DNA of 14,202 bases from a virus. Shown here piece by piece: positions 1-14,202 of this stretch. Made by a program: the position numbers and the translations under genes. A model generated the notes under the pieces. It was not told the DNA's origin and did not search any database. It worked only from the letters and a program-made list of their open reading frames with translations. How positions within the stretch are numbered: the stretch's first letter is position 1; each line of letters begins with the position of its first letter. The stretch lies in UHGV virus genome UHGV-0304018; one strand, 5' to 3'.

Positions 1-46
1 GTAATTTCCACATTGACCTCCGGATCTGTTTCTCCCCCTATTTATA

Positions 47-75
47 ATCTTATCATACTGTCAACAGAATGTCAA
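47..75 (-). promoter_or_regulatory. Candidate leftward promoter inside the conserved 110-nt repeat block (copy A)
   Basis: On the minus strand: TTGACA (rc of 70..75), 17-nt spacer, TAAGAT (rc of 47..52). It points at a GTG start at position 11 whose ORF runs off the left window edge. Confidence 0.35.
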
Positions 76-382
76 TGAGAATTATTATCATTCAGGTGTG
101 CTATAGGTGCAAGCAAGTCCACAGCAAAGGGGTAAGCATTATTAATGGCCCCTACCGTGTCAAAACCAGAATCACTTATAGCATTTATGCAATAAGATTG
201 TCAATGGCCCACAATGGATGGAGAGCACTTTTTGTTAAAACTTTGGAGGGTGTTAAACTCAAACCTCATGAGAGGCCCTACAACGCGATTTAAGCATCAG
301 GTAATGCAATTCACTAGGGAGTATGGTTTATCTCGCTGTAGGCGCTAAAATCGCGCTTATTTTCGATTTATGAGTGTCATAT

Positions 383-541: not shown

Positions 542-606
542 CACACAGGCCGACGTAGTCGGTTTAGCTGTATAGCTAAAGTCACAGAGTGACCCACACA
601 CATATT

Positions 607-645
607 GCCTAAAGAGTCGCTAATGCTCTTTAGGCTTTCATTTGT
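607..645 (+). terminator. Rho-independent terminator, rightward (copy A)
   Basis: Perfect 10-bp stem gcctaaagag / ctctttaggc with a 9-nt loop, followed by tttcatttg. Confidence 0.6.
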
Positions 646-698
646 GGGTTAAGCTTTTCCCTTAGAAAACCTTCCCCACTCTCTGATCCCTCCCCATT

Positions 699-721
699 CC
701 CCCCTGGGGGGTTAGGGGGGG
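699..721. repeat. Homopolymer cluster C6-T-G6-TTA-G7
   Basis: Read directly: cccccctggggggttaggggggg, just left of the iteron array. Confidence 0.9.
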
Positions 722-763
722 ATCTATTGTGTGGTCTATTACTTTATCTATTAGTGTCAAATA

Positions 764-949
764 TTTTTACAGGTAGTAGTAAAAGATTTTGACAGGTAGT
801 AGTAAAAATATTTTACAGGTATGGGCCGTATTATTGGTGGGGTAGTAAAATATTTTGACAGGTTAGGGGCTGTGTATCATGGGTGCAATGACTGCAAAAC
901 AGGAGAGTATGACTGTATAAACACACAGGTGTGAAAATTCTTTACAGGT
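764..949 (+). repeat. Array of five iteron-like direct repeats, core TTTKACAGGT; candidate origin of replication or protein-binding array
   Basis: Cores at 765-774, 787-796, 811-820, 854-863 and 940-949; the first two units also share acaggtagtagtaaaa; spacing of the first three is 22-24 bp. No ORF on either strand. Confidence 0.6.
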
Positions 950-1141
950 TAGTGCGGTAATATTTACCGGGGTGTGGTGCCTGAGTATGACTGAAAGGGG
1001 TTGTAGGAAATCCCAACAGGTGGGGGAGTGATTGCATCTGATTTTTTACTCTGTATTAGCCGTCAATTGACCTATTTTGACTAGCAAACCTCTCTCCTCT
1101 CTCTTTGCTTTGATTTTCTCTCATGTGTGGGAAATATGCAG

Positions 1142-1167
1142 ATCAACACCCGTTGATTTTATCAACA
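1142..1167. promoter_or_regulatory. Overlapping palindromes ATCAA-N6-TTGAT-TTT-ATCAA including a DnaA-box-like TTATCAACA
   Basis: Read directly; TTATCAACA (1159..1167) is one mismatch from the TTATCCACA consensus. Confidence 0.3.
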
Positions 1168-1726
1168 GTTATGTTGACCGGGTGTCATAACTATGGCCCC
1201 TGGGGCAGTCCATCCTTCCCTCACACAGGACAATGAATACATAAAGAACATGAAAGACTGTTCACACCAACACGCCGATAAATTGCCTGAAGAGGCTTGC
1301 ATGGGGTTATTGTTGTGTGGGTAATGGTGATCATGCTAACAGATTATGTTAATCAGATGTAAATTCCGGTTTTGTGGTCTACAGAGAACAAACTATACTG
1401 GTTAAATGATCAGGGGAATGACTACAAAACAATCAAAAATGTGGGATATAGCCATCTATACGTCTAATGTGCTGTGTGGGGTGTTAGTGCATGCTTACAT
1501 GTAAGTCATTGATTTGAAGGGTTGGGAAAATTGCATTTAACATAATAGATCTTATCTACACTAATAAAGCGCACTACAAAATCTGATTTAAAAATCATGA
1601 TCAGTGGGCACAGAATTTACGTACAGCCACCTGAATAAATAATGTGCACAACATACAGCAAAGCTTAAGAATTAACATAATAGCAACGTGGTCGGCAGTG
1701 GTGTGATATTTGAGAATTGTTAGAAG

Positions 1727-1763
1727 AAAAAAGGGAGGTGGGGGAGCGCCTGCCTGGCACCTC
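1727..1763 (-). terminator. Possible weak leftward terminator in the gene-free region
   Basis: 6-bp stem GAGGTG / CACCTC with a 17-nt loop, followed on the minus strand by CC and T6. No matching promoter was found. Confidence 0.3.
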
Positions 1764-2302
1764 AGACGAACATCTGACGGGTATTAATACCGCTAATGGA
1801 TATTTCTGACACCCACACCCAAGACCGCTTTCAGCACACAGCCATACACCGCACAGGATGCAATTGTGATAACAAAAAATGGGGGTGTAATAGGGTAGGT
1901 CATCTTTCATCAAAATCACTTCTACGACGTTCCCAGAGTGATAACAAGAAAACAGGCCTCTAAGATTATCTGTGCCTCGTTTTTAGCTTTTTGTGTGGTT
2001 ACCAGGTGAATAGGAAATGTTAAAAACTGTTCATTTTATGCACAAACTAGTCAGGGTGATACTACAAATTGAGGTGTAAGAAATCCAGCTGCAGATAATC
2101 TTGCAGCCAGATTTTGCAGTTTTTGAGGGTATGTTAAATTTGACAAAAATAGAGAAAAGGCCAATTGAGCTAAGCTATTGATTTTATTAGTATTGCAAAA
2201 AAGGGTTACATCCTCTCTCTTACACTGTCAACAATGCCCAAAACCATTAAATCAATAAATAGGCATTAAATACCCATTAAATAGGGGTTAAATAGGGGAT
2301 AA

Positions 2303-2328
2303 ATAAAAAAGGGGCCGTGATGGCCCCC
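2303..2328 (-). terminator. Rho-independent terminator ending the leftward membrane-protein gene
   Basis: Perfect hairpin ggggcc-gtgat-ggcccc (2311..2327) followed on the minus strand by T6, 17 nt after the stop codon at 2345. Confidence 0.75.
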
Positions 2329-2344
2329 TGGTGGGTTGGTGTGG

Positions 2345-3055
2345 TTATTTCATAGGAGAGGTTTCTACGGCTTCACCGTACATCTCATTAAGCATCTTCA
2401 ATGCTTCCATATCAACATTCAGGAGTGTTCCCTCAGTGATCCAGGCGTTATTCTGCCATGCTTCGTGAACGAGTTCACCGTTATACCATCGAGCCGTTCG
2501 TGTAGTTTCTATGCTTACACCGTCCATGTGGCGCATCTGTAGCCAACGATCATTGCCTTTTACATCCTTGCACCATACCGTCAGAACATCTTTATTTTTC
2601 CCAGTAGGTGCCCCACTGTTAACCGCCACTTTAATCTGGTTGCAAGCACCTTTTTCTGCATGATTCCACAGCCAGGCGTGAATCTGGTATTTATCTGTGC
2701 ATCCTATATCTTTAGAGAGATCGCAATCTAGCACACCATAAATATATTTATATGCTTTTACCCTGTCCTCCCATGTAAGATCGGAGACGTTAACCACTTC
2801 TTCATGCTGTGAGTTCACCTCTTCCACATTTGCAGCTGTATTTCCTGTGGGAAGAGAGAAGTAGGCCCAGCCAATAAGCCCCGCGACTATAACCAGACTT
2901 GTTATGACTGCTCCAGGGTGCTCTTTATATTGTGCATGCAGCTTTTTAATATCTTTCCCTACACTCATCACTAGTAATAGAGGCAAAGCAATTACTAACA
3001 CCCATGGACCAAATACAATGCAAGCTAATAGTGTAACAATAATTCCCTTAAACAT
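2345..3055 (-). CDS. Membrane protein, 236 aa: two N-terminal TM helices plus a ~165-aa extracytoplasmic domain with four Cys; function unknown
   Basis: ORF track; hydrophobic segments at about aa 5-30 and 50-68; SD AAGGGG 7 nt before the ATG; own terminator. The superinfection-exclusion or defence role is inference only. Confidence 0.75.
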   Translation of the reverse strand: MFKGIIVTLLACIVFGPWVLVIALPLLLVMSVGKDIKKLHAQYKEHPGAVITSLVIVAGLIGWAYFSLPTGNTAANVEEVNSQHEEVVNVSDLTWEDRVKAYKYIYGVLDCDLSKDIGCTDKYQIHAWLWNHAEKGACNQIKVAVNSGAPTGKNKDVLTVWCKDVKGNDRWLQMRHMDGVSIETTRTARWYNGELVHEAWQNNAWITEGTLLNVDMEALKMLNEMYGEAVETSPMK

Positions 3056-3062
3056 AGTGGTA

Positions 3063-3083
3063 CCCCTTTGCGAGAAGTTGATT
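3063..3083 (-). promoter_or_regulatory. Duplicated leader element AAAUCAACUUCUCGCAAA (minus-strand sense) immediately 5' of the ribosome-binding site of 2345..3055
   Basis: 18 nt identical to the element at 3583..3603; a 12-nt core gcgagaagttga recurs at 8086..8097. Confidence 0.5.
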
Positions 3084-3112
3084 TAAGTTAATAACCTGGT
3101 GGACTGTTCACA

Positions 3113-3373
3113 CTATTTATTCTTCTTAAATCTCCCATCCTCCTTTCTTTCGATATTGTGGTAGTCGGCATAGGCTTTTAGCCTTCTGTGCACGGTGGCG
3201 ATCCCCACACCGAAGGTTTTAGCGATGACCTGTCGTGGCGTTCCCTCCTCAACCATCTTGTACATCTGTTCCGCTACATCCATTTGTGCGGCTATCTCCA
3301 TTTGCTTTGCCTTAGCTTTAATTTCAGCTATCAGCTCTTCCCTCAGTCTCTTAATATCTTTAGTTCCCGTCAT
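3113..3373 (-). CDS. Small DNA-binding protein, 86 aa: N-terminal charged helix plus a C-terminal HTH resembling the DNA-binding domain of Hin/Gin-type serine recombinases; no catalytic domain
   Basis: ORF track; GTPRQVIAKTFGVGIATVHRRLKAY resembles the Hin C-terminal HTH as recalled from memory, not searched; start codon overlaps the stop of an upstream small ORF (ATGA). Confidence 0.7.
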   Translation of the reverse strand: MTGTKDIKRLREELIAEIKAKAKQMEIAAQMDVAEQMYKMVEEGTPRQVIAKTFGVGIATVHRRLKAYADYHNIERKEDGRFKKNK

Positions 3374-3450
3374 AAACTCCGCTCAATGATGATTAATACA
3401 AAATCTAAGACTGCCAGACCTATTAAAAATACTTTGCCTCCTTTGCCCAT
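3370..3450 (-). CDS. Possible 26-aa hydrophobic peptide (MGKGGKVFLIGLAVLDFVLIIIERSL), translationally coupled to the HTH gene
   Basis: Hand translation; below the ORF-track length cut-off; single predicted TM segment; stop overlaps the downstream ATG. Confidence 0.25.
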   Translation of the reverse strand: MGKGGKVFLIGLAVLDFVLIIIERSL

Positions 3451-3451
3451 C

Positions 3452-3574
3452 TCACACCTCCACACACAGAGCTAACATCAGGGCTAAAACTCCAACCACC
3501 TCAATTGCCTTAACAATGTGTGGGTGATGAAACCTGGCCTTTTGCCATGCGCTGGCACTGTTCTTGATACCCAT
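3452..3574 (-). CDS. Possible 40-aa peptide with hydrophobic C-terminus (MGIKNSASAWQKARFHHPHIVKAIEVVGVLALMLALCVEV)
   Basis: Hand translation; SD AAGGTGA 5 nt before the ATG; the duplicated leader element lies immediately upstream. Confidence 0.3.
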   Translation of the reverse strand: MGIKNSASAWQKARFHHPHIVKAIEVVGVLALMLALCVEV

Positions 3575-3582
3575 AACTATCA

Positions 3583-3603
3583 CCTTTTGCGAGAAGTTGA
3601 TTT
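3583..3603 (-). promoter_or_regulatory. Second copy of the duplicated leader element, immediately 5' of the ribosome-binding site of the 40-aa ORF
   Basis: Read directly; identical 18-nt core to 3063..3083. Confidence 0.5.
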
Positions 3604-3638
3604 GTTTGCTCGGTTGGGTGCTTTCACTGGCTATGCCA

Positions 3639-3655
3639 GGTGACTTTCAGTCACC
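3639..3655. promoter_or_regulatory. Palindrome GGTGAC-tttca-GTCACC; same half-site as the repeat palindromes
   Basis: Read directly; sits in the divergent control region between the leftward module and the rightward capsid promoter. Confidence 0.4.
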
Positions 3656-3744
3656 CCTTTGGGTGTCTCTATCAATGCTACCCTTCCTTGATTCGAACTA
3701 TAACCGGGTAAATCCCCGGAAAACATTGATATTGATCAAAAGAT

Positions 3745-3775
3745 ATCTATCACGAATGAAAAAGTTATGATAGAT
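3745..3775. promoter_or_regulatory. Inverted repeat ATCTATCA-N15-TGATAGAT; candidate operator
   Basis: Read directly; about 90 bp upstream of the consensus capsid promoter; a further ttgatagagg half-site follows near 3800. Confidence 0.4.
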
Positions 3776-3861
3776 GCGATGAGATGACGTATTGATGGGA
3801 TTGATAGAGGTCTGAAAATACCGTTACTACGCTAATTATTAGAATTTATATAATAAGGGGG

Positions 3862-3890
3862 TTGACAATTTGAGAGAATACTGATATAAT
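3862..3890 (+). promoter_or_regulatory. Perfect consensus sigma70 promoter: TTGACA, 17-nt spacer, TATAAT
   Basis: Read directly: -35 at 3862..3867, -10 at 3885..3890, with an AT-rich upstream stretch. Confidence 0.8.
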
Positions 3891-3896
3891 ATACAT

Positions 3897-4370
3897 ATAC
3901 CGTAAATCAATGGTGAAAGTGATTTGCCGTATTTTCCTCCAAAGTAAAGGCGACCAGGTAGCGGTGCCGCCTTATAAATAACACTACCCTGATCATCGTT
4001 GAGTGGTCGATTAATTCTCCTATTGGGCTAGTTATCCACACAGTTTTCTTTTGCGGGTTTTCTGTGTGGGTAGCTATCCCGAAAGGTATTTCCCCGCTGA
4101 TGTGACCGCAGCCTGAACTGATCCGGGGGAGTGCCTTTCGTGATAGTGCTCTCTAGTAACCGTAACCCATACTGTGAACTATCATCCGACTGTTGTCGGT
4201 TTCCCCATGTGGAATAGCCCCCGCTTGGCTACGGTGCGGGGCTATCTCCCTCTCCTTGTATCAATTTCCCTTTAGATTTCCGGCATAACTTTTCGGCCCG
4301 AGCCTGTCGTGGTTTGAGAGGTTATACCGGAACTCTTTGAGGGGAGTTAATTTAAATCGCAGGTGATCAA
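3897..4370 (+). other. ~470-nt untranslated, hairpin-rich leader between the consensus promoter and the first capsid gene; candidate cis-regulatory RNA
   Basis: No plausible ORF; several strong stems, e.g. ccacacag-N18-ctgtgtgg (4036..4069), ccgac-tgtt-gtcgg (4187..4200), tagcccccgc-N11-gcggggcta, aaggcg-N16-cgcctt. Folds were judged by eye. Confidence 0.5.
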
Positions 4371-4706
4371 ATGAGAGATATGACTATCCGCACACGCGGA
4401 CACATCATTTCATACGCCGCAGATGAGCAATTTTCTATTCGCGACGTTGAAATTAAAAACAAAGTTAAGGCTGAGATTCCGGCTGGCACTGTTGTTGTGG
4501 TGACTGAGGAAGGCGAGGTTGAAACATTCGTTAAAGCAACGCACACCGGTAAAACTCCGCTGCTGGTTGTAGAACGTGCTGAGGTTGGTGACGCTTTTAT
4601 CGTTGTTGCGAACAAAGGTTGCTACATCAATCCGGCCTACGTGGATAAAGAAGGCTTAGCCGCTGTTATTGCTGCCAGCAATGGCGATTTGCGTGTTGCA
4701 CAATAA
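4371..4706 (+). CDS. Putative head decoration protein, 111 aa
   Basis: ORF track; size and position immediately upstream of the major capsid gene, as in lambda D-E; AGGTGA site before the ATG; codon usage typical of a highly expressed gene. Family assignment is by context only. Confidence 0.8.
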   Translation: MRDMTIRTRGHIISYAADEQFSIRDVEIKNKVKAEIPAGTVVVVTEEGEVETFVKATHTGKTPLLVVERAEVGDAFIVVANKGCYINPAYVDKEGLAAVIAASNGDLRVAQ

Positions 4707-4711
4707 GGAGG

Positions 4712-5764
4712 TTGAAGATGGCTAAGAAAGAATTTGAAGTTCGCGATCTGTGTGGTCTGATTAAAGACATCCCGCTGGATAACCAGATTATTTCAGCAAT
4801 GGATATCTTCAACACTACAGCCCTGTGCAATACCTTTAAATTTGAATATGACAAAGTTCGCCAGGTGAAACAAACCGCTTTCGGTCAGTATCCGCGCTAC
4901 GGTGAACAGATGGCTACCATTACCGCAGATGAGCGTGAAACGGGCACGGGTGATATGGCATTCACTGCCGCATCAAGTGCTATTTATCCTTCTGACTGGC
5001 AAGGTATCCGTGTTCCGGGCAAAGATTCCGAAGAGAATTTAGAGTCTGTAACCGCTCGTCGTGTTATTCAACTGGGTGAAGGACTACGCGCGACCCATGA
5101 AGAAGCACGCCAGCTTGCTCTCTTTGAGAACAAAATTATCCTTACCAAGGGTAAAGAACTGAATGTGTGCGAACTGCTGGGCGCACAGCAAACCACTTCA
5201 GAAGTGGATCTAGCTCAAGATATCCTTAAACAGCTGCAGGACCTGGTTGCACTGAGCAAGGTTAAACAGCGTGGTGTTGTTCGCGCTCTGCGTGGTTTCA
5301 CCCTGTTCTGCCGTGCTGAGCTCTTTGCTGCAATTCAGACTGATGAACTGCTCCGTAAAGTGCTGTTGTTCGGCAATCAGAATATTACCGACAAAGGTCT
5401 GATGTTCCCTGAGGATATTCTGCCGGGCTTCCCGACCTTCCGCATTCCGGGCTTAGCTCTGCGTGTGGTGCAAATGGATAGTCTGCCAGAGAATACTGCT
5501 TATCTGGTCCCACAGTTCCAGCCGCATGCGTTAGGCGATATGGTGGGCGTTTATACTCAATTTTTCGGCCCTTGCGCTCGCAACCTGAAGCTTGCAAACG
5601 GCGCTGCACGTGAAGCTTTCATGTATATGGAAGAGTCCAGAGGTAAACGAGAAATCTTCATTGAATCCTCTTATGCTTTCATGAACATGATGCCTGAGGT
5701 TGTGGTTAAAGTGAGTGTTAGTAACTCCGCCGCCGCTGCTCTGGCAAAAGCCAAGGCTAAATAA
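4712..5764 (+). CDS. Putative major capsid protein, 350 aa
   Basis: ORF track; strong AGGAGG site 6 nt before the ATG; size and position after the decoration-like gene; followed by a terminator. Fold not verified. Confidence 0.85.
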   Translation: MKMAKKEFEVRDLCGLIKDIPLDNQIISAMDIFNTTALCNTFKFEYDKVRQVKQTAFGQYPRYGEQMATITADERETGTGDMAFTAASSAIYPSDWQGIRVPGKDSEENLESVTARRVIQLGEGLRATHEEARQLALFENKIILTKGKELNVCELLGAQQTTSEVDLAQDILKQLQDLVALSKVKQRGVVRALRGFTLFCRAELFAAIQTDELLRKVLLFGNQNITDKGLMFPEDILPGFPTFRIPGLALRVVQMDSLPENTAYLVPQFQPHALGDMVGVYTQFFGPCARNLKLANGAAREAFMYMEESRGKREIFIESSYAFMNMMPEVVVKVSVSNSAAAALAKAKAK

Positions 5765-5795
5765 GGTCCTTCTTCGAAGGCCAAATAAAAGCAAA

Positions 5796-5846
5796 GGGAA
5801 GAGGTGAGAGATCGGGGATAGGTCTTTCCCTCTTCCCTTTTTTATT
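5796..5846 (+). terminator. Rho-independent terminator after the capsid gene
   Basis: 9-bp stem gggaagagg / cctcttccc with a 24-nt loop, followed by ttttttatt. Confidence 0.55.
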
Positions 5847-5877
5847 ATCCCCGTCTTAAGTTTTTGAGGTGTCTTTT

Positions 5878-6129
5878 ATGAAAATTGTTTTATACGGCGA
5901 CCGTGACGACGTGCCTTTTGATATTATCCATATCGATGACGAGGATCTGCCGGAATTCCTGCGTATCTCCACATTTGCCGCCTGCTATGACGTTAGCCGC
6001 CAGGCTATGCATAAATACCGTGAATATAATAAATGCACCTGGGCCGAGACTTTCGAACATTTTATTGCACGCAAACAGGCACAGGACCGCAAAAAAGCCC
6101 TGAATGCCCATAATCGTTTTGCAAAATAA
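5878..6129 (+). CDS. Hypothetical small protein, 83 aa, with a possible HTH (STFAACYDVSRQAMHKY)
   Basis: ORF track ORF 5869..6129, start re-placed at the ATG at 5878 with GAGG 8 nt upstream. Confidence 0.65.
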   Translation: MKIVLYGDRDDVPFDIIHIDDEDLPEFLRISTFAACYDVSRQAMHKYREYNKCTWAETFEHFIARKQAQDRKKALNAHNRFAK

Positions 6130-6234
6130 CGCTCTCGGGAAGAGCTATAAGCGATTCTAACGAATAACTGCCCTGTATTTTCTGCAGATTTTAAGCAGGG
6201 CAACGAAAAGATTCATTTTTGAGGCATGTTCAAT

Positions 6235-7002
6235 ATGGCTAATGATGCTCTAACAGCTGCAAAACAAGCTGAGTCGAGATCTCCTGCATTCACTGTTATG
6301 TGTGGGGGATATTCACAAAACAAAAATATAATGGATGGCTTCAACTATACCGATAATGTGGCTATCTTCTTTGACTCTATCTCTGATGTCAGCTATTCGT
6401 TCCCTGTTGAGAAATCGAGCTATGCGGTCGAGGATGGCACCACCATGTCAGACCATGCCGTCATTAAAGATAAATCTGTCAGCTTTACGGGTATTGTTAC
6501 CTCTTCCCCTCATATCATCCGGAAAGAGAACTACATCGACCGGAACACTGATCCAGATAATCCCCGTGAATCTATGCGCCCTGCTGCCGCTGTTCAGGCA
6601 CTTATGGAAATGAGAGACAAGCGCCAGCTGGTTAGCCTGGTTAGTGAAGATGCCGGACTTCTTGAGAACTTCATCATGACGAAATGTGAAGTTAAGCGTA
6701 GCTCTTCCTCTGGCGACTGCATCACTATTGATTGCACTTTTGAAGAATTCCGCACCTTCAAGGTGAAGATGGTCGAAAATGCCGGAGTTTTCACTAACAG
6801 TAAGAAGGTGAATAAAACACAGCAAAAGGGTGCTGTTAACAGTGCTGAGAAGAATAGCAACGTCGGGAACTCAACCAACACCCCATCGGCTAAGCCTAAA
6901 AATTTACAAACTTTGCTCGATGAAAATGATGGGGCTATGAGCACAAAAGACATTTATGATCAGCAAAGGCAAGCCAAATTTGCCAAGGATGCTACAAAAT
7001 GA
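6235..7002 (+). CDS. Hypothetical phage protein, 255 aa, probably virion-associated; function unknown
   Basis: ORF track ORF 6226..7002, start re-placed at the ATG at 6235 (GAGG 10 nt upstream); stop overlaps the next gene's start (ATGA). Confidence 0.75.
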   Translation: MANDALTAAKQAESRSPAFTVMCGGYSQNKNIMDGFNYTDNVAIFFDSISDVSYSFPVEKSSYAVEDGTTMSDHAVIKDKSVSFTGIVTSSPHIIRKENYIDRNTDPDNPRESMRPAAAVQALMEMRDKRQLVSLVSEDAGLLENFIMTKCEVKRSSSSGDCITIDCTFEEFRTFKVKMVENAGVFTNSKKVNKTQQKGAVNSAEKNSNVGNSTNTPSAKPKNLQTLLDENDGAMSTKDIYDQQRQAKFAKDATK

Positions 7003-7457
7003 AAGTCCGGTGCACCATAGACAAGCGCATGATGGATAAGCTGCATAAAGAGCTCTCACAGATGGAAGGTGTAGCGGTTGGCTGGGATGACGGGAAACAC
7101 TATAGCGGCCTGAATTACGCCACACTGGCGGCTATCCACTCTGAGGGGTGGGGTGATTTGCCTAAGCGCTCATTTATGGAGTCTGCCCACGCTGCAATGC
7201 TCTATGAGAGCCTGAGACACACAAAAGCCCTGATTAATGCAATCGTAAAGGGTGGGAGCTCTGAGGCCGTCAGAAAGCGAATTGGCAAGCGATACGCCGA
7301 CATTTTGGAGACTATCCTGATTAGTGGGCAATTCAGCAATAACAAGGTTTCCCCACAATGGGCAAGCTATAAAGGCTTCAATGATGCAATGCGCCACTAT
7401 GATGATTTGATCGGTGCAATCAAATACTGGGTAGACATAGACAAGAAAGGGGCCTGA
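6999..7457 (+). CDS. Putative head-tail joining or tail-completion protein, 152 aa (HK97 gp10-like)
   Basis: ORF track; motif HSEGWGDLPKRSFMES matches the P-x-R-x-F signature I associate with that family; size ~150 aa. Recalled from memory, not searched. Confidence 0.75.
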   Translation: MKVRCTIDKRMMDKLHKELSQMEGVAVGWDDGKHYSGLNYATLAAIHSEGWGDLPKRSFMESAHAAMLYESLRHTKALINAIVKGGSSEAVRKRIGKRYADILETILISGQFSNNKVSPQWASYKGFNDAMRHYDDLIGAIKYWVDIDKKGA

Positions 7458-7470
7458 TAGCCCCTCTCTC
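7449..7470. terminator. Possible bidirectional terminator between convergent genes
   Basis: Hairpin ggggc-ctgata-gcccc overlapping the stop of 6999..7457, with T-rich sequence on both strands. Confidence 0.4.
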
Positions 7471-7475
7471 TGAGA

Positions 7476-7625
7476 TTAGATAAACTGGGATAATTCCCGC
7501 ACAAGCTTTATCTCCTGCCGTTCCTTCTGCTTCTCTTCTAACCATTTCCGGCCTTCTTCAGTCTTGAGAAACTTGCGAGCGTGAATCTTGCGGTTATTTC
7601 GCTTAATGGCATTGGCATTCTTCAT
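7476..7625 (-). CDS. Small very basic protein, 49 aa (MKNANAIKRNNRKIHARKFLKTEEGRKWLEEKQKERQEIKLVRELSQFI)
   Basis: Hand translation; below the ORF-track cut-off; SD AAGGGG before the ATG; candidate promoter just upstream; its start context is nearly identical to that of the membrane-protein gene. Confidence 0.5.
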   Translation of the reverse strand: MKNANAIKRNNRKIHARKFLKTEEGRKWLEEKQKERQEIKLVRELSQFI

Positions 7626-7659
7626 AGTGTCACCCCTTCTTATGACCTGCTACGCCTAC

Positions 7660-7688
7660 ATTATAGCCAAAATCCTGAATTCAGACAA
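7660..7688 (-). promoter_or_regulatory. Candidate leftward promoter: TTGTCT, 17-nt spacer, TATAAT
   Basis: -10 is rc of 7660..7665 and -35 is rc of 7683..7688; about 27 nt upstream of the start of the 49-aa ORF. Confidence 0.5.
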
Positions 7689-8085
7689 TAGAACTCTTTT
7701 TGATGCCGTGTTGGTGGTAAGGAGAAACACTAGCATCATTTAGGGGTTTTCAGGTTTTCATGTAGATCAGCTTTATCAGGTACCTGCTTATATTCCGGTG
7801 CGGTGAAACCGTGTGGGCATCTCTTAGTTTTGGCTTATCACTTATTGCCGGGTAAGAGAGCAGAACCACCAACGTTTGCCTGTTTATCACCTTGGTTAGG
7901 GTGAGGCCGCATCAAGCCCAGTGCTCTACAAGATACTCCAGATCATAGACGCTTATTTTCTCTTAGAGGTCGCGTTAACCTCTGGGATCTGTTTCCACTG
8001 ATGAATATAAAACAAACGGTATGAATGATCAAACGTGAACAGAAAGAGAGTTGACTTTCTCTCTGCAGATGATCACACTTGCCAG

Positions 8086-8097
8086 GCGAGAAGTTGA
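8086..8097. repeat. Third copy of the 12-nt core gcgagaagttga
   Basis: Read directly; lies 3' of the tape-measure gene, overlapping a possible rightward terminator hairpin (agcccc-N19-ggggct followed by ttttatt, 8097..8130). Confidence 0.5.
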
Positions 8098-8142
8098 GCC
8101 CCAAAGGATGACAAATCCCGAGGGGCTTTTATTATCAACCAG

Positions 8143-10284
8143 TTAGAAAAGCTGATTAGCTTCCTGTGTGGCTTTCCAATCCAGCTGATCGCTGACTTCC
8201 TTCTGGATCACCCTGGCAATTCCCCCCTCATCAATGGTTATCTCCCACTTGCCGGAGATCTCACCCTGCGGAACTACACTGATTTGAGTCGGCTGATAGC
8301 CTCCATTCTGAATAGCAATACCACCCGTTGGTGTTGGTCTGGTAATGTAGCGTCCTGCGTCCAGACGATAATCAAGGCCAAGGAAGCTAGAAGCACTATT
8401 AACCATACTGGTTAACCATTCAGGATGTTTAGCTCCTTCCTGCCGCTGATTATCAGGATTCTGCCAGTAGGAATCTAAGCTATTTGCAATGTCAAATCCT
8501 GTCAAAACAATCCCTGCCGGACCTGCAAATCTTCCTCCAAGTCTGCCTGCTTTCCCGATAAAGCCGCCTCTACCTGGTCTGCCTTTGCCTGCTGTGCCTC
8601 CAGTGCTGATATCACCAACACCGACTAAAGCACTAAGCGCCGCTTTAAGTTTCCACAGCATGGAAATAAGGCCGCCAACCATGCCAGCAATGCTTGTTGC
8701 AACCTTCAGGCCTAACAGGGCGGTCACAACCTGGCCAATCTTCTCGCCTGCATCCTGTGCGGTCCAGCCTAACGTCTCACCAATGCCTTTGGCGATCTTC
8801 TTAGTCCACCACCAAGCCCAGTTGACCCAAAAATAAATTTCATGCATTGCCTCGCCTAACATAACTCCGAGAGATTTGGCATCTTCACCTGAGCTACTGA
8901 AAATTGAGGATAAATCTTCAAAGATATAAATAAGGGATTCTGACAGGGTAATGACGCCATCCGCAGGATCCACAACACCCATAAAGGATTGCTTTAGTTT
9001 AAAAAACTGGTTGCTCATTCTCTGCAGTGCCACTTCAGGCTGTTGCATAGATTTAGCAAAAGCGTCAGTTTCTTTTGCAGCACCCCAGATTTTCACTAGA
9101 GAGGGAAGAAGCTTGTCCAGGGTGATTTTGCCATCTGCCATGGCTTTATCGAATTCCTGGGCACTCTTGATGATTCCGGCATCAATAGCGGCCTGTTGAA
9201 AATCCTGTTGTGAGCCTGCAAAGGCTTCTGACAGCTGGCCACGCAGCTCTTCCGCAGCTACTCTTCCTTTTGAAGCCATTTGTTGGACCGCAACAAGCGC
9301 CCTGTTCTGTTGCTCGCCAGTAGCACCCACTGAGCGGCCTTTAATCGCCATAGCCTCAAAAAGAGCCTGCTTATCAGATTCCTTCATGGTGGGAGTAGCG
9401 GCAGCAAAACGCATATAGCCACCCTCCATCTCACGCTGATCCATCCCGTAGGTGTTGGCTGTGTTCTCGATAAAAGCCATCTGCTGGTCAGTCTTGGCTT
9501 TATCATCCTTGTTCTGAGCAAGCAAACCATAATAGGCTGAGTTATGGTCAGATTGAGCGCTCATAGCACCACTAACAGCTCTCTGAATACCCCATCCTGC
9601 AGCGGTCAGGCCAATGGCTATCTTGCCTAAAGCACTGTTAAGCTTGCCGATATTGTTATGCACCTTGCTCGCACCTGCTGCCAGTTTATCTAGCTTGCTT
9701 TGAAAGGTGGTGGCATCTCTAGAGGCCATCTTCATTTCAGCTCTGAGTCGGGCCATTTTCTGATTATAGGTCTGCAGGTTAATAGCCCCTTTAGCATAAT
9801 CAGCATTAACTCTCTGGATTCTGCTTTGGAACTGAGCAACCAGGGATCCATCAAACATGCTGCTGATTCGTGCACTGTTGGCCCCTACACGTGCTTTTCT
9901 GTGCTGAACATCTCCAACACTACGATCTAACAGTTTTTGTTGTCTGGCGGCTTCTCTGGCTTGTTGTTGGTAGAACTTGCGCATAGAGTTAAGTTCGGCA
10001 TTGTTGCCCCCGGTCAGACGGCTGACAGCCTGAGCACGTTGTTTCTTCTGTGCTTCCTGTTGTTTCCTCTGAGCTCTGGCTATCTGCTCTTCCACCTTAG
10101 CGCGTGTTCTTTGTGTTCTGAGCACAGCCTGATTAGATTTAAAATCAGCTTTAGCTATATCGTCGGTAGCTTTCTTCCAGGATTTTTTATAATCCTCAAG
10201 CCGTTTAACTTCTTTTCGCCAGGAGGATTTATCAGAGTCCCAGTAAATAACGTTTGTTAGTCTGGCTACTTCCTTCATTGCCAT
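8143..10284 (-). CDS. Tail tape measure protein, 713 aa
   Basis: ORF track; charged coiled-coil-like N-terminal third, central region with the conserved core recalled for tape-measure proteins (GRVAAEELRGQLSEAF), and hydrophobic and Gly-rich segments near the C-terminus; SD GAGG before the ATG. Confidence 0.85.
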   Translation of the reverse strand: MAMKEVARLTNVIYWDSDKSSWRKEVKRLEDYKKSWKKATDDIAKADFKSNQAVLRTQRTRAKVEEQIARAQRKQQEAQKKQRAQAVSRLTGGNNAELNSMRKFYQQQAREAARQQKLLDRSVGDVQHRKARVGANSARISSMFDGSLVAQFQSRIQRVNADYAKGAINLQTYNQKMARLRAEMKMASRDATTFQSKLDKLAAGASKVHNNIGKLNSALGKIAIGLTAAGWGIQRAVSGAMSAQSDHNSAYYGLLAQNKDDKAKTDQQMAFIENTANTYGMDQREMEGGYMRFAAATPTMKESDKQALFEAMAIKGRSVGATGEQQNRALVAVQQMASKGRVAAEELRGQLSEAFAGSQQDFQQAAIDAGIIKSAQEFDKAMADGKITLDKLLPSLVKIWGAAKETDAFAKSMQQPEVALQRMSNQFFKLKQSFMGVVDPADGVITLSESLIYIFEDLSSIFSSSGEDAKSLGVMLGEAMHEIYFWVNWAWWWTKKIAKGIGETLGWTAQDAGEKIGQVVTALLGLKVATSIAGMVGGLISMLWKLKAALSALVGVGDISTGGTAGKGRPGRGGFIGKAGRLGGRFAGPAGIVLTGFDIANSLDSYWQNPDNQRQEGAKHPEWLTSMVNSASSFLGLDYRLDAGRYITRPTPTGGIAIQNGGYQPTQISVVPQGEISGKWEITIDEGGIARVIQKEVSDQLDWKATQEANQLF

Positions 10285-10285
10285 T

Positions 10286-10522
10286 TTATACCTCGCCCTG
10301 TCTTAAAGATTTTGATAATGAAATAGCCCTTTTCAGGGCCTCTTTATCAATATTATATTTCTCCGCCAGCTCTTCGATTGAGAGGCCTTCTGTGTGGGAG
10401 CTACTTTTAATAATGGTGGACCCCTCTTTCGCTGCCTCTGGCAGGTGACCTATTGTCACCCCTTCGGGCGTGTCTTCGGAGTCCTTAACCAGTTTTTGAT
10501 AAATCTTTTCGTAGATATTCAT
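10286..10522 (-). CDS. Hypothetical protein, 78 aa, immediately upstream of the tape-measure gene
   Basis: ORF track; SD AAGG 8 nt before the ATG; stop is 1 nt from the tape-measure ATG. A tail-assembly-chaperone role is inferred from position only. Confidence 0.7.
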   Translation of the reverse strand: MNIYEKIYQKLVKDSEDTPEGVTIGHLPEAAKEGSTIIKSSSHTEGLSIEELAEKYNIDKEALKRAISLSKSLRQGEV

Positions 10523-10523
10523 A

Positions 10524-10913
10524 TCATTTGCCTTTGCGTCTTAGTGGACACTTATCGCCAATAGTCCACACAAAAATATAATGGCGCTTGCTTTCAGCTT
10601 TAGGATTTAATAATTCTTTATGCAAATATCCGGCTGACAGCATTTTATCGACCAGGTTTTTCACTCTTTGCCCTTCCTCAAATGTTTGTGCTTTGAAATA
10701 GAGATTTGGAAAGTTTTGGCCTGTATACTTTCCATCTTCATTTAAGCGGGTGCATACCCAACGACATAAATCATCGTCGTTAAGATCACTAACGTGTGGT
10801 TTATCATCGCTGCTAAATAACGCCTGTTTAAAATGGGAGTAACTAAACTCCCCTTCTTCCAGGAAATCACCCTCTTCGAATTCAACTATCATTTCTTCAA
10901 TATTCATAGGCAT
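10524..10913 (-). CDS. Hypothetical protein, 129 aa, acidic N-terminus; possible tail assembly chaperone by position
   Basis: ORF track; compact gene spacing. Confidence 0.75.
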   Translation of the reverse strand: MPMNIEEMIVEFEEGDFLEEGEFSYSHFKQALFSSDDKPHVSDLNDDDLCRWVCTRLNEDGKYTGQNFPNLYFKAQTFEEGQRVKNLVDKMLSAGYLHKELLNPKAESKRHYIFVWTIGDKCPLRRKGK

Positions 10914-10967
10914 ATCCTCTCATTGATGCACCCCCCAAAAAATGGGGAGTGCTTATTTATCAATAGC

Positions 10968-11411
10968 TTAATCAAGATTAACCAGTTTGAGAGGTTTGAC
11001 AGCTTGGAGCATGGTCTGCATCATTCCTACGCTTATTTCAAAGAGATCTGCCATGTTCTGAAGGCTTGCCCCTTCTGCCTCAATCATTGATTTGGATAAG
11101 GCAGCAATCACAAAGCCATCCTGGGCGCTGTTCCACATGCTGATAAGAGGATCATCACCGTGTTGGCGCATAAGGTCCTGAATCATCCACAGCCTACATG
11201 CCATAACCACCAAATCGACATAGAAAACATCACCATTAGCGGACTTGCATTCAGCAAAAGCGTGGTGTCTGTGTTTTAAGAAGTGCTCTTTGTCACGGGT
11301 AAATGCCAGGGTGTTGGTAAACTTGCCATCTAAAAGATCCTGGCGAACTTTTGAATCTTCAGCGTCGAAAGCTTTGATTACCTGGGATAATAATTTAGCG
11401 ATTTGAGACAT
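10968..11411 (-). CDS. Hypothetical protein, 147 aa
   Basis: ORF track; AGGA 7 nt before the ATG. Confidence 0.75.
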   Translation of the reverse strand: MSQIAKLLSQVIKAFDAEDSKVRQDLLDGKFTNTLAFTRDKEHFLKHRHHAFAECKSANGDVFYVDLVVMACRLWMIQDLMRQHGDDPLISMWNSAQDGFVIAALSKSMIEAEGASLQNMADLFEISVGMMQTMLQAVKPLKLVNLD

Positions 11412-11484
11412 TTGGAATTCCTTAAATTAGAGCCCCGGAAGGGGTTAAAGTGAGTCGAAAATAAATAAATCGAAGAGATAAAAC

Positions 11485-11973
11485 TTAGGCTTTCTGGGCC
11501 ATTGCTTTCTGGACTTTATTTCTATGGCGGCGGTAGATGAATATAAATTCGCGATAAGCACGACTACCGGGCTTAGGCAAACGTTGATTAAGCTCCTTAC
11601 GTGGCAGGATTTCACTCAACAAGCCCCAGATATGAAAGCAGGTTACTTTTAATTCTTTTGCTATCTCTTCAATATTCATCCCACAATTCCACATTAAAAG
11701 AGATTTGCGGCGGCGATCTTCGAAGACATTTCTATCTCTATCTATTTCGTTGTAGACACTGAGGGGAACTCGACACCGTGGATTCCAGGACTCATTATAT
11801 AGTTTTTGGACTTTCTCAAGTTTAACGCCTGTATATTCCGCCACGAATTCAGGGGTAAAGCCCTCGACTAATAAGTGTTTAGCCTGTCGTGTTGGTTGAT
11901 CATCACTGGGGAGATATTTCTGCAGTGCTACCAGTTTTTCAAATTGGGAATCAGAAAGATCAGATTTGAACAT
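11485..11973 (-). CDS. DNA-binding protein, 162 aa, with a sigma70 region-4-like HTH; candidate late-gene activator or small-terminase-like protein
   Basis: ORF track; RRKSLLMWNCGMNIEEIAKELKVT follows the region-4 pattern (R-x-hydrophobic-L-x4-G-x3-EEIA-x2-L-x-V); GGAGA 7 nt before the ATG. Confidence 0.75.
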   Translation of the reverse strand: MFKSDLSDSQFEKLVALQKYLPSDDQPTRQAKHLLVEGFTPEFVAEYTGVKLEKVQKLYNESWNPRCRVPLSVYNEIDRDRNVFEDRRRKSLLMWNCGMNIEEIAKELKVTCFHIWGLLSEILPRKELNQRLPKPGSRAYREFIFIYRRHRNKVQKAMAQKA

Positions 11974-12071
11974 GATTAATTCTCCGAACGTTTAAAAGAT
12001 CAGGGCAATCAATCTAGTTCTAGTGCTTAGTTTGTTTATTTAGTTTGTTTGGGGATAACAGGGGATATTAA

Positions 12072-12218
12072 TTAATAAGGGATGTCAGAATCATTTTCTT
12101 CATCTGCTGGATCTTCAGCTAACCAACCACAATATTCTTCCCAATATGAAAAATGTTGTGATAGTTCATCTTCAAAATATTTTTCCTTTTCCAGGTAATA
12201 ATCAAGATCGCCATACAT
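12072..12218 (-). CDS. Small strongly acidic protein, 48 aa (MYGDLDYYLEKEKYFEDELSQHFSYWEEYCGWLAEDPADEENDSDIPY); candidate DNA mimic or anti-defence protein
   Basis: Hand translation; below the ORF-track cut-off; AGGA 8 nt before the ATG; 16 acidic versus 2 basic residues. Confidence 0.5.
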   Translation of the reverse strand: MYGDLDYYLEKEKYFEDELSQHFSYWEEYCGWLAEDPADEENDSDIPY

Positions 12219-12257
12219 TTTAAATTTCCTTTAGAATACTGTAAAAAATAAGAATGT

Positions 12258-13121
12258 TTATTTTGTAATGGTTAATTCGCCTTTTACAAGCTTGCAGTTG
12301 TTCCACAATCTTTCTTTCGGGGCATCATAGCCATGACTAATATAATCGATGATAATTGTTTTACCTCTTTTAGCTACATGTTGAGCCACCTTAAGGGCCT
12401 GTTCTGTTAAATGCCAATAATCATCTTCTTTCCAGATTCTACCCTCAACGGTGCCTTTAATTTTATCCATCACCTCCGGCCCGTAAAATGCATCTCGCAA
12501 TTCAGAGAGTTTAATGCTCTTCCGATCCTTAAATGTTGCCTGAATCCCTTTGTATTTGGCGTTCATCTCATCACTTGTCAGAATCGGATAACCGTGCTCA
12601 TCTTTCTCACGTTTGCCAGCGTCTCTAAAGCGCTCTCTGCGCTCGTTCTTAGGTTGGGTAGGCAATTGCACCACCTCGGCCTTTTTAGCTTGCTGTGTGG
12701 GTTGTTTTGGGGCTTCCTGTTGATTATCGGGGGCCTCTTTACTAGATCCCACACTGTCGGAGGTTTTAATACCCTGCTCATCACACATCTTGCCAAGCTG
12801 ATCAGGGGTAATTAGCAGTTTGTAATGATTAGATTTGCCTTTACTTTTAACTATTGAAATAAGCCCGGCATTTTCTAGAGATTTAATCGAGTTAATAACT
12901 GTCGGTCTTGAAACATCATAATCGTCTGCTAATCTCTGTTCAGAGATAAATATTTCACAACCTGCAGCATTAAAACTTGCCATCTCACCGTAAATTGTCA
13001 TTTCCAACAAGTTTAAGTGAAATCTTTCTTTATTGGTTGTAGTTTTTGCAATCGGATTTTTAAAAATGTATTTGATGAAACGTTTAAAAAGGGGAGTAAA
13101 ATTTTCCCCGTAATTACTTGC
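12258..13121 (-). CDS. Winged-helix DNA-binding protein, 287 aa (N-terminal wHTH, low-complexity linker, C-terminal domain); replication-initiator-like or antirepressor-like
   Basis: ORF track ORF 12258..13181, start re-placed at the internal ATG at 13121 (GGGGGA site 4-5 nt upstream), which removes the overlap with 13138..13353; wHTH-like segment ISEQRLADDYDVSRPTVINSIKSLENAGLISIV. Confidence 0.75.
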   Translation of the reverse strand, partial: ASNYGENFTPLFKRFIKYIFKNPIAKTTTNKERFHLNLLEMTIYGEMASFNAAGCEIFISEQRLADDYDVSRPTVINSIKSLENAGLISIVKSKGKSNHYKLLITPDQLGKMCDEQGIKTSDSVGSSKEAPDNQQEAPKQPTQQAKKAEVVQLPTQPKNERRERFRDAGKREKDEHGYPILTSDEMNAKYKGIQATFKDRKSIKLSELRDAFYGPEVMDKIKGTVEGRIWKEDDYWHLTEQALKVAQHVAKRGKTIIIDYISHGYDAPKERLWNNCKLVKGELTITK

Positions 13122-13137
13122 CATAATTCCCCCATAA

Positions 13138-13353
13138 TTATTTATTAATGTTATTGGTGTATTTAGCCAGTTCCCGCTCAAGGCGAATGCAATTTAGTTT
13201 TAAAATTGCTTCTTCAATGTGTGGATATTCTCCTTTATGTTTACGAATGAATGCATAAACGGAAGTTTTGCGGAAGTTCCCCTTAAGTACGTTCTCGACG
13301 ATTTCGTCAGTAGTCCAGTTTACCAGCTGGCTGATCGGTCCGGTTTTAGCCAT
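13138..13353 (-). CDS. Small hypothetical protein, 71 aa; possible regulator
   Basis: ORF track; perfect AGGAGG site 8 nt before the ATG. Confidence 0.75.
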   Translation of the reverse strand: MAKTGPISQLVNWTTDEIVENVLKGNFRKTSVYAFIRKHKGEYPHIEEAILKLNCIRLERELAKYTNNINK

Positions 13354-13486
13354 AGTATAAGCCTCCTGTTAGCTCACTAACCTGTGCGATATATGATTAA
13401 AAAGAAACGGGAACTTAAGACAAGCCCCCGCCAGTCTACTAAAGGAAATTCACTATGATGAGAATTACCCTATGCTTTATATTTTA

Positions 13487-13636
13487 TCAGACATTCGTCA
13501 AATTGTCAACAATCTTTTTGTATTTATCTATCATTTTTTCTTCAAGATTGTCGATTGCAGTTACTCCGGCTATGTAGGCAACACCGCACCACAGTACAGC
13601 CAGGTTGATGATCGCTATTGCATCAGTAATTTCCAC
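13487..13636 (-). CDS. Possible small single-TM protein, 49 aa, GTG start; its start lies inside the conserved 110-nt repeat block
   Basis: Hand translation (VEITDAIAIINLAVLWCGVAYIAGVTAIDNLEEKMIDKYKKIVDNLTNV); GGAGG 5 nt before the GTG; competes with a probably spurious plus-strand ORF 13472..13672. Confidence 0.35.
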   Translation of the reverse strand: MEITDAIAIINLAVLWCGVAYIAGVTAIDNLEEKMIDKYKKIVDNLTNV

Positions 13637-13671
13637 ATTGACCTCCGGATCTGTTTCTCCCCCTATTTATA

Positions 13672-13700
13672 ATCTTATCATATTGTCAACCAATTGTCAA
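13672..13700 (-). promoter_or_regulatory. Candidate leftward promoter inside the conserved 110-nt repeat block (copy B)
   Basis: Same TTGACA / 17-nt / TAAGAT arrangement as copy A, upstream of the small ORF 13487..13636, which has a GGAGG ribosome-binding site. Confidence 0.35.
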
Positions 13701-13914
13701 TGAGAATTATTATCATTTAGGTGTGCTATAGGTGCCATAGCCTGCACAGCAGACACAAGCAAGCCCACAAGGGAGGGCACTTTTTGCCTTAAGCGCTCTA
13801 AAATCGATTCTAACGCGATTTAGAGGTCAGGTAATGCAATTGCACTACTCACACTAGTTAATGCAGCCAGAAGGCCATTTAGGGGGCTTATTTTCGATTT
13901 ATGAGTGTATCCTT

Positions 13915-13933
13915 TATATATGTGTGCGTGCAC
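13915..13933. repeat. 19-nt alternating purine-pyrimidine tract (tatatatgtgtgcgtgcac) in repeat copy B
   Basis: Read directly; followed by the palindrome cccgcgcggg. Confidence 0.8.
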
Positions 13934-14089
13934 CCGCGCGGGAGACTCTTTGCTGCCTCCTTCCGGCGCTGGCAAGCTTTCGGCAGCGGTCCACATGTGG
14001 GCCTCATGCTGACGCATTCGCCGGACCACACACAGACCCGAAGGGCTTAGCCATGGGCTAAGGTGCCGTAGGCACTCCCACACACAATT

Positions 14090-14124
14090 GGGTGACGTGT
14101 CATGTATGGAATACATTGTCACCC
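14090..14124. promoter_or_regulatory. Same GGGTGAC-N21-GTCACCC palindrome (copy B)
   Basis: Identical to 507..541. Confidence 0.5.
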
Positions 14125-14137
14125 CCACACACATATT

Positions 14138-14176
14138 GCCTAAAGAGTCGCTAATGCTCTTTAGGCTTTCATTTGT
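14138..14176 (+). terminator. Rho-independent terminator, rightward (copy B)
   Basis: Identical 10-bp stem, 9-nt loop and T-rich tail as 607..645. Confidence 0.6.
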
Positions 14177-14202
14177 GGGTTAAGCTTTTCCCTTAGAAAA
14201 CC

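Follow-up and report, generated by a model that had tools for sequence, protein, structure and literature searches.

A conserved membrane-protein gene and a candidate immunity RNA share one control locus in a family of circular Escherichia coli elements

The window analyzed here is a 14,202-nucleotide (nt) stretch of DNA, the virus genome UHGV-0304018, which belongs to a family of circular Escherichia coli elements. Near its right end, the minus strand carries a single locus in which a small membrane-protein gene, orf49, is followed by a predicted short RNA with a promoter of its own. The reading that we favor, with a probability of roughly 0.6, is that this RNA, transcribed from the promoter P2, represses the downstream gene orf48 and that orf49 would be made in the carrier state. 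Judged by the order of its predicted signals, orf49 heads a short transcription unit that consists of the promoter P1, a leader, orf49, P2, a hairpin-containing RNA and a terminator (Table 1).

A first-pass annotation, made from the letters alone, had described this block as a promoter, leader and start codon for a small protein with one transmembrane (TM) segment, and the description holds. On the minus strand, TTGACA followed after 17 nt by TAAGAT, a GGAGG site and a GTG-started open reading frame (ORF) of 49 amino acids (aa) are all present. The single hydrophobic helix is borne out by a Kyte-Doolittle 19-residue maximum of 2.18 (residues 7-25) and by a single AlphaFold2 helix. At the left end, where a second copy had been proposed to start at position 11, a GTG indeed lies at 11-9 and its ORF leaves the window edge. 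The -35 and -10 hexamers, the Shine-Dalgarno (SD) sequence and the start codon are kept in all family members fetched, as befits a sigma-70-type promoter with a short leader. In the window, 85 ORFs reach 40 aa or more, and a local scan finds seven promoter-like sites, vs 2.7 +/- 1.5 in shuffled sequences. A 49-aa ORF with a promoter match is thus weak evidence alone, and the case rests on comparison with about 30 relatives (loci L001-L029 and others), of which L024 is the most divergent.

Every family locus fetched contains orf49. Its frame is intact in all loci and in seven clusters of 49-aa proteins, and it starts with GTG in lineage 1 and with ATG in lineage 2, the SD being kept. Over codons 5-40, the ratio of nonsynonymous to synonymous substitution rates (dN/dS, Nei-Gojobori) is 0.03-0.10, with dS up to 0.96; between the window and the most divergent lineage, 13 synonymous and 4 nonsynonymous changes were counted (dS 0.96, dN 0.049). 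In codons 5-31, variation falls nearly always on third positions, and about half of the codons show a synonymous change. Codons 32-46 show no synonymous change in any lineage because they overlap P2. On this comparative evidence, orf49 is a genuine core gene of the family under strong purifying selection. The earlier suggestion that the small protein is what selection maintains therefore stands for the low dN/dS but not as an exclusive claim, as P2, from which (with P1 read-through) the leader RNA would arise, overlaps the same stretch. It has to be considered whether orf49 might go unexpressed as protein, the block being kept for DNA or RNA signals such as promoters, an operator or a recombination anchor. 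Overlapping signals are indeed present (P1, P2 and a tandem TTGACAAT), and the block forms one conserved flank of a cassette-like hypervariable region. Nevertheless, the third-position bias in codons 5-31, the survival of the start codon through a GTG/ATG switch and the frame intact throughout make this idea scarcely credible.

The predicted protein has a TM segment at approximately residues 6-28 (23 residues). AlphaFold2 models one continuous helix from residue 3 to 47 with a mean predicted local distance difference test score (pLDDT) of 91.6, so laid out that a short acidic N-terminus and the TM helix are followed by a Lys-rich, charged amphipathic C-terminal helix. No Lys or Arg precedes the TM segment and four Lys follow it; by the positive-inside rule, the C-terminal helix is probably cytoplasmic. 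Leaving the tape measure protein aside, the element has only two TM proteins, one of which is orf49. The Prokaryotic Genome Annotation Pipeline (PGAP) annotates it as WP_157794903.1, a hypothetical protein in RefSeq, and the identical protein is indexed in 1657 sample blocks. Outside the family, no homolog was found in Pfam, PHROGs, NCBIfam, PADLOC or the PDB sequences, by a word index over 5.8 billion proteins, by full HMMER over 1.8 billion representatives, or by tblastn against 50,697 phage records.

P1 scores 10/12 and has TG directly before its -10. A second TTGACA lies within its spacer at 13689-13684 (TTGTCA in two loci); the -35, this inner hexamer and TGATAAGAT are kept across the fetched lineages, and the other spacer bases vary. 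Transcription from P1 would begin at the 5' end of the orf49 leader, whose SD is kept in all loci (as TGAGG in one). Upstream, an A/T-rich block resembling an UP element marks the limit of family-wide conservation; neither a promoter scan nor reading of the sequence revealed a convincing plus-strand promoter in it.

P2 lies in the last approximately 15 codons of orf49 and scores 11/12, the TGA stop codon of orf49 providing the TG of an extended -10. It is nearly invariant in all loci, its -10 being TATAAT in L024; the A-rich stretch upstream (~13514-13543) is invariant, and P2 is also kept in L030, a phage hybrid described below. About 55 nt beyond the orf49 stop stands a strong intrinsic terminator, preceded by a conserved hairpin. 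RNAs predicted to run from the P2 start to the terminator in the different loci measure 78-101 nt and have fold z scores of -2.9 to -4.4. Hairpin 1 is retained with different stem sequences in different alleles, a structural claim that relies on individual folds and not on RNAalifold.

P2 is much like P3, a promoter of perfect consensus at 3862-3890 (+) that serves the capsid operon. The likeness among P1 (13672-13700, -), P2 (13481-13509, -) and P3 goes well beyond the sigma-70 hexamers: both P2 and P3 read TTGACAATTTGA...CTGATAnAAT, and P1 carries TTGACAAT in tandem, 11 nt apart. This motif occurs five times in the window vs 1.0 expected, always at promoter-like sites, one of them at 197-204 (-). 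The common sequence suggests a shared operator or a mimic of helper-phage early promoters.

The predicted target of the leader RNA lies on the same strand about 1.2 kb downstream, where orf48, the first ORF behind the replication initiator gene rep, has its SD and AUG. In alleles a to d, the complementarity always joins the unpaired linker of the RNA to the translation initiation region (TIR) of the post-rep ORF, although the sequences differ between alleles (Table 1). In lineage 2, the RNA is an unrelated one of 96 nt, and its linker is predicted to pair with a stretch spanning the AUG of the 62-aa ORF belonging to this lineage (dG -26.6). In an all-against-all matrix of duplexes, the cognate pair is the best in every row, and only 0-1 of 500 shuffled targets reach the observed duplex energy. 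Compensatory double changes were found at 8/10 variable duplex columns (manual register). As far as these alignments go, the leader RNA and its target change together in five or more allelic pairs.

Table 1. Coordinates of the locus, its predicted RNA target and the allelic RNA-target pairs (positions in the 14,202-nt window)
Feature	Position	Strand	Description
A/T-rich block	13701..13751	-	UP-element-like (GCACCTATAGCACACCTAAATGATAATAATTCTCA), upstream of the P1 -35; conserved in all lineages
Promoter P1	13672..13700	-	Predicted; TTGACA 13700-13695, 17-nt spacer, TAAGAT 13677-13672
orf49 leader	13637..13665	-	~30 nt; SD GGAGG 13646-13642, then 5 nt, GTG 13636-13634
orf49	13487..13636	-	49 aa, GTG start, predicted single-pass membrane protein: MEITDAIAIINLAVLWCGVAYIAGVTAIDNLEEKMIDKYKKIVDNLTNV
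Promoter P2	13481..13509	-	Predicted; TTGACA 13509-13504 (codons V-D-N), 17 nt, TAAAAT 13486-13481
Leader/3' untranslated region (3'UTR) RNA	13397..13476	-	Predicted, ~77 nt; hairpin 1, unpaired linker (anti-TIR 13457-13432), intrinsic terminator
Intrinsic terminator	stem 13432-13406, then UUUCUUUUU (U tail)	-	Promoter/terminator scan; strong
orf71	13353..13138	-	Downstream of the terminator, upstream of the RNA target
rep	13181..12258	-	Replication initiator; HTH_36, lambda-O/DnaD-like
Leader RNA target	12216..12241	-	Predicted; SD and AUG region of orf48; inverted repeat I4 with linker 13457-13432
orf48	12218..12072	-	Very acidic 48-aa protein; first ORF after rep
Allele A, same locus on second pass	1..126	-	P1 75-47, SD 21-17, GTG 11-9
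Allele a (window and others)			Linker/target AAUUUCCUUUAG / CUAAAGGAAAUU; perfect complement 12 nt (21/26 with flanks)
Allele b (L024)			Perfect complement 18 nt
Allele c (L026, L009)			Perfect complement 17 nt
Allele c' (L027)			Perfect complement 15 nt
Allele d (L014)			Perfect complement 16 nt

The arrangement suggests how the unit could work. Transcripts from P1 and P2 would mostly end at the terminator, yielding an orf49 mRNA of about 270 nt and the RNA of about 77 nt. No promoter is evident between the terminator and orf71; therefore, expression of orf71 and rep probably needs read-through, which would feed both genes. Behind the RNA target lie the acidic orf48, orf162 through orf78 and the tape measure gene, rep being upstream of it. 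The small RNA would keep orf48 from being translated and may also hold back the tail-gene cluster that follows, so that the morphogenetic genes would be silent in the plasmid state with rep still on. Such a logic would be like that of P1/P7 c4 and P4 CI immunity, with hetero-specific alleles. Being co-transcribed with the immunity RNA, orf49 would be made in the carrier state, where our best guess for its role is membrane-level exclusion or protection against incoming phages or sibling elements. We favor this role, with modest confidence and by analogy, because orf49 shares its unit with a putative immunity RNA, the usual place of carrier-state functions in prophages and plasmids, as with cI-rexAB of lambda.

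Several points weigh against this reading. The evidence for the starts of P1 and P2, for an efficient terminator and for a free 77-nt RNA comes from sequence. RNAalifold scores no base pair of hairpin 1 or the terminator as formally compensatory, the inner stem having been misaligned by MAFFT, and no Rfam family, C4 included, matched anywhere in the window at E<=1. The target is not universal, as L006, L017, L019 and L020 lack a small post-rep ORF, and in L023 a lineage-2 (e-type) RNA stands with a d-type target, a mismatch to the pairing rule; these five loci could serve as natural controls for the immunity model. P1 shares TTGACAAT with P2 and P3 and has a tandem TTGACA, so that it may be repressed in the carrier state, which would undercut the carrier-state argument for orf49. 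Finally, a strong SD and promoter before a hydrophobic peptide also fit a toxin or an infection-induced lysis factor, and nothing found here tells exclusion from toxin or lysis roles.

The toxin alternative casts orf49 as the killer of a type I toxin-antitoxin system in which a plus-strand antisense RNA serves as antitoxin and post-segregational killing stabilizes a partition-less plasmid. The peptide has the expected format (<60 aa, hydrophobic, one helix), its gene is a universal and highly conserved core gene, and the plasmid has no recognizable par genes. Within an invariant stretch of the ORF, the plus strand has a weak promoter-like site, TCAACA-17-TATCAT (9/12), and terminator hairpins follow downstream on that strand; however, the invariance is equally explained by P2 and its UP region. 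Hok/Sok is the obvious comparison, Hok being likewise a hydrophobic single-TM peptide of about 50 aa on a plasmid. Yet orf49 has an acidic rather than a basic N-terminus and no identified antitoxin RNA, and it matches neither Hok/Gef nor Ldr, TisB, Ibs, ShoB, Zor or another toxin family (Pfam E<=0.01, NCBIfam E<=1). Type I toxin leaders are typically long, structured and SD-sequestering, whereas the 5' untranslated region here is about 30 nt long and unstructured, with a strong and exposed SD. Furthermore, a search of the variable and conserved noncoding regions found no trans complementarity to the orf49 TIR beyond that of shuffled sequences. We therefore regard a toxin as unlikely.

A role in lysis, which we rate on a par with the toxin, would make orf49 a holin, antiholin or timing factor that sets helper lysis upon rV5-like infection for the element's benefit. 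The element's tail genes are homologous to those of rV5-like and phiTE-like virulent myophages, an rV5-like phage contig containing 1.4 kb of the family indicates that the two meet in the same cells, and few other TM proteins are on offer in the element. A precedent exists in LidI of the Vibrio cholerae PLE, the satellite of ICP1, a protein of 66 or 121 aa that is detected only after phage infection and was shown experimentally to collapse lysis inhibition (PMC7182436). Like the 66-aa LidI, orf49 is a small, family-restricted orphan TM protein, and LidI's carrier is a satellite of a virulent myophage, as the present element probably is; the two are likened by description. On the other hand, no endolysin or spanin gene occurs nearby, where the neighbors are orf71 and rep, or anywhere in the element. 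In addition, orf49 has no dual-start motif and no holin homology (Pfam, PHROG), none of the phage records holds a homolog, and the gene is transcribed with what appears to be a carrier-state immunity RNA. A further idea, that translation of orf49 rather than its product controls the terminator or P2, draws on its place in the rep operon leader upstream of the terminator and on the overlap of its 3' end with P2, which ribosome traffic could occlude or open. Against a regulatory leader ORF stand purifying selection on amino acids over 36 codons with saturating synonymous change, a canonical TM helix, and a gap of 55 nt from the stop codon to the terminator stem, more than classical attenuation by ribosomes would allow. 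The minimum-free-energy fold of the full mRNA offers a long-range pairing of the orf49 SD with hairpin 1 and the 3'UTR; this candidate was rejected, as its z score is only -1.74 and it lacks co-variation across the hairpin alleles. Overall, we consider this idea very improbable, and the unit of a carrier-state membrane protein and an orf48-repressing RNA remains our preferred explanation.

The comparison with relatives also changes how the two window ends are understood. The first-pass annotation had seen two copies whose expression signals were conserved while the rest diverged; this does not hold, as the relatives are circular monomers with one copy of the locus. The window is 91-94% identical to circular E. 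coli "plasmids" of 13.2-13.7 kb, for which PGAP lists a major capsid and a tape measure protein, a baseplate protein, two helix-turn-helix (HTH) proteins and hypothetical proteins. Strains that carry the element include E. coli E275a (pE275a_13), RM10740 (p3RM10740) and VTB97448v (pVTB448v-4). Family contigs assembled from short reads measure 13.1-14.3 kb, and many close on themselves by exact overlaps of 30, 77 or 127 nt, leaving one copy of the locus. The metagenome contig ERZ1753694 NODE_350 (L032) is 100% identical to window 593-14202 (13,610 nt) and has a period of 13,531 nt, i.e., 14202 minus 671. Only positions 1-592 (allele A, the counterpart of allele B at 13626-14123) deviate, their best match among 30 relatives being 85%. 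By this comparison, the window is a circular element of about 13.5 kb read slightly more than once, its end repeats are one locus, and 1-592 is a second allele of the family-wide hypervariable noncoding region. Comparing the two small ORFs with each other is moot because they are one gene read twice around the circle. The P1 spacer of allele A is of the lineage-2 type (TTGACATTCTGTTGACAGTATGA), and the two promoter copies differ exactly at the positions that separate the lineages (ATTGG/AATATG vs TTCTG/AGTATG).

If the ends were instead real, the molecule would be linear or dimeric, with nonidentical terminal direct repeats of about 600 bp that each carry a promoter and orf49. Positions 1-126 match 13626-13751 at 90% identity, perfect repeats of 49 and 79 nt stand at both window ends, and multimers are on record, namely a 26.7-kb contig that is an exact dimer and a 39.6-kb record that is a trimer. 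However, the copies inside these multimers are identical or 99% alike, the latter in all three copies of the trimer, which rules it out as a heterogeneous multimer. Exact k-mer overlaps turn every other family contig into a circle with one copy of the locus, and identity of all but 1-592 to an independent contig is the pattern expected when an assembler enters a second allele. Real ends are thus a very poor fit.

Among known immunity systems, the closest in logic is c4 of P1 and P7. Work by Citron and Schuster in 1990 is said to have placed the c4 target over the icd ribosome-binding site, with allelic specificity separating P1 from P7. In the immI locus, c4 is a small sense-strand RNA at the operon head that blocks icd-ant downstream in the same transcript, and it forms a secondary immunity layer of a phage-plasmid (PMC8198154). 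Likewise, the RNA of the present element is encoded on the sense strand in the leader of an operon, is predicted to pair with a downstream ribosome-binding site and appears allele-specific in at least five alleles. Unlike c4, it has no sequence or structure match to Rfam C4, and it has its own promoter in a protein gene and its own terminator, so that no RNase P processing would be needed. Further differences are that a membrane-protein gene precedes the RNA, that the target is about 1.2 kb away beyond rep and that only one target site was found. By these features, the RNA is c4-like in logic and not a member of the C4 family. The P4 CI and N15 CA RNAs, studied by Ghisotti, Deho and colleagues and by Ravin et al. 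in 1999, are reportedly processed leader RNAs that impose immunity. They act mainly via premature transcription termination, pairing with leader sequences. The present element resembles their carriers as a probable plasmid-capable satellite or phage-plasmid with a predicted RNA beside a terminator in the leader of a replication or early operon; it differs in that the complementarity is to a far-downstream ribosome-binding site and that there is no homology, the P4 record itself annotating neither kil nor the CI RNA.

In architecture, the RNA recalls MicL in cutC and DapZ in dapB, which are 3'UTR small RNAs with a promoter in the upstream coding sequence that share the mRNA's terminator. They are chromosomal and Hfq-dependent and act in trans on unlinked genes. 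Common to these and the present RNA are a promoter in the 3' end of a gene, an unpaired seed beside a terminator hairpin and a long U tail, whereas here the target lies in the same operon and co-varies with the RNA. For the protein, HK97 gp15 and lambda RexB, the latter co-transcribed with cI, offer a parallel as small inner-membrane exclusion proteins of prophages. Exclusion by HK97 gp15 depends on the tape measure protein of the incoming phage. By analogy, orf49 would be a putative membrane protein co-transcribed with an immunity determinant, on an element that carries a tape measure protein of its own; however, there is no homology, and orf49 is a universal core gene rather than a moron-like accessory.

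The setting of the locus points to a satellite. The element encodes a lambda-O/DnaD-like Rep and an HK97-fold capsid protein and has iterons (GTAAAAnATTTTnACAGGT) at 758-964. Its tape measure protein is 26% and its Dit-like tube initiator 46% identical to the rV5-like counterparts, and a tail-completion-like protein is 49% identical to that of phiTE-like phages. No terminase, portal or integrase was recognized among its proteins, several ORFs being left unassigned. The family has no DNA match in the phage collection, and its capsid protein has no tblastn match there. Searches with the major capsid protein gave no distant relatives in one-genome-per-species contigs and, in a large protein set, only E. 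coli proteins of at least 82% identity. No description of the family was found in the literature on rV5, Vequintavirinae, satellites and plasmids. Over 90% of its length, contig L030 shares 98.8% identity with the rV5-like Escherichia phage nom, and it contains at 10173-11583 a 1.41-kb insert 96% identical to the family member L002. This insert comprises orf49 codons 25-49, which are fused to a phage ORF (P0008, 82 aa), together with P2, the leader RNA, the terminator, orf69 and the N-terminal part of rep. Element and rV5-like phages thus meet and recombine, and the L030 phage may have captured the element's immunity RNA. On these grounds, the family is probably a plasmid-borne satellite of rV5-like phages that was previously undescribed. 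A bolder and only tentative proposal is that P1, orf49, P2, the small RNA and the terminator form the immunity/exclusion module of new Vequintavirinae satellites. In that case, the RNA would represent a new c4-like class whose alleles silence hijacking and tail genes until the helper arrives, orf49 would be the membrane effector, and the stolen RNA of the L030 phage would counter the satellite.

Other parts of the window merit mention. The hypervariable region between P1 and an ultra-conserved block (100-1000 and 13740-14123, the two alleles) is indel-rich and noncoding and contains repeated CCCACACAC-plus-hairpin modules, a G/C-run hairpin (696-723) and the iterons. Plus-strand hairpins resembling intrinsic terminators lie at 338-366 and 13872-13895, and also at 607-635, equivalent to 14138-14166; a conserved tail, ATTTTCGATTTATGAG, follows them. 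Family members differ in the stem, which takes three forms (AAGGCC/GGCCTT, AGGCGC/GCGCTT and CCTGC/GCAGG). These hairpins suggest an RNA running divergently from P1 through the variable region; the plus strand showed no convincing promoter for it. Conservation within the element peaks at 1180-2010 (more broadly ~1000-2250), where no ORF exceeds 84 aa and relatives have no annotated gene. Even L024, with genes of 75-94% identity, matches this stretch at 96-98%. The stretch has no Rfam match and no DNA match in phages, and a structured RNA was rejected, the fold z score being about 0 on both strands. One possibility is a cis-acting DNA site, e.g., for packaging or helper recognition. The window also contains no recognizable tRNA or tmRNA.

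Variation is concentrated at further sites. At 2345-3055 (-), a variable slot encodes a 236-aa protein with an N-terminal TM anchor (Kyte-Doolittle 2.71) and no family match, and relatives carry alleles of 173, 176, 195, 225 or 236 aa with little DNA similarity. This slot could be an accessory or defense hotspot beside an 86-aa HTH_7 regulator (3113-3373). The segment 7400-8900, from orf152 to the C-terminal part of the tape measure protein and including a basic 49-aa ORF (7476-7625), occurs in some relatives only, with a good match in L014 alone; the tape measure protein is mosaic in its C-terminal part. In L004, a 79-kb contig (GCA_043168025.1), a family member is embedded in a larger contig, and a Tn3-family transposon with a beta-lactamase gene directly follows a shortened tape measure gene (629 aa). 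There, orf49, the leader RNA and rep are intact.

Taken alone, orf49 is an orphan membrane-protein gene that RefSeq already lists as hypothetical; in context, it stands at the head of the control region in an element that is very common in E. coli. The predicted RNA-RNA interaction, with its natural compensatory alleles, would extend immunity in the style of P1 c4 and P4 CI to an unrelated RNA, and the leader RNA alleles would offer ready-made orthogonal regulator-target pairs. rV5-like phages are widely used in therapy cocktails. If the element is indeed a plasmid-resident satellite of these virulent phages, it would represent a type of satellite new to E. coli, and orf49 and the RNA would provide the first handles for dissecting it.

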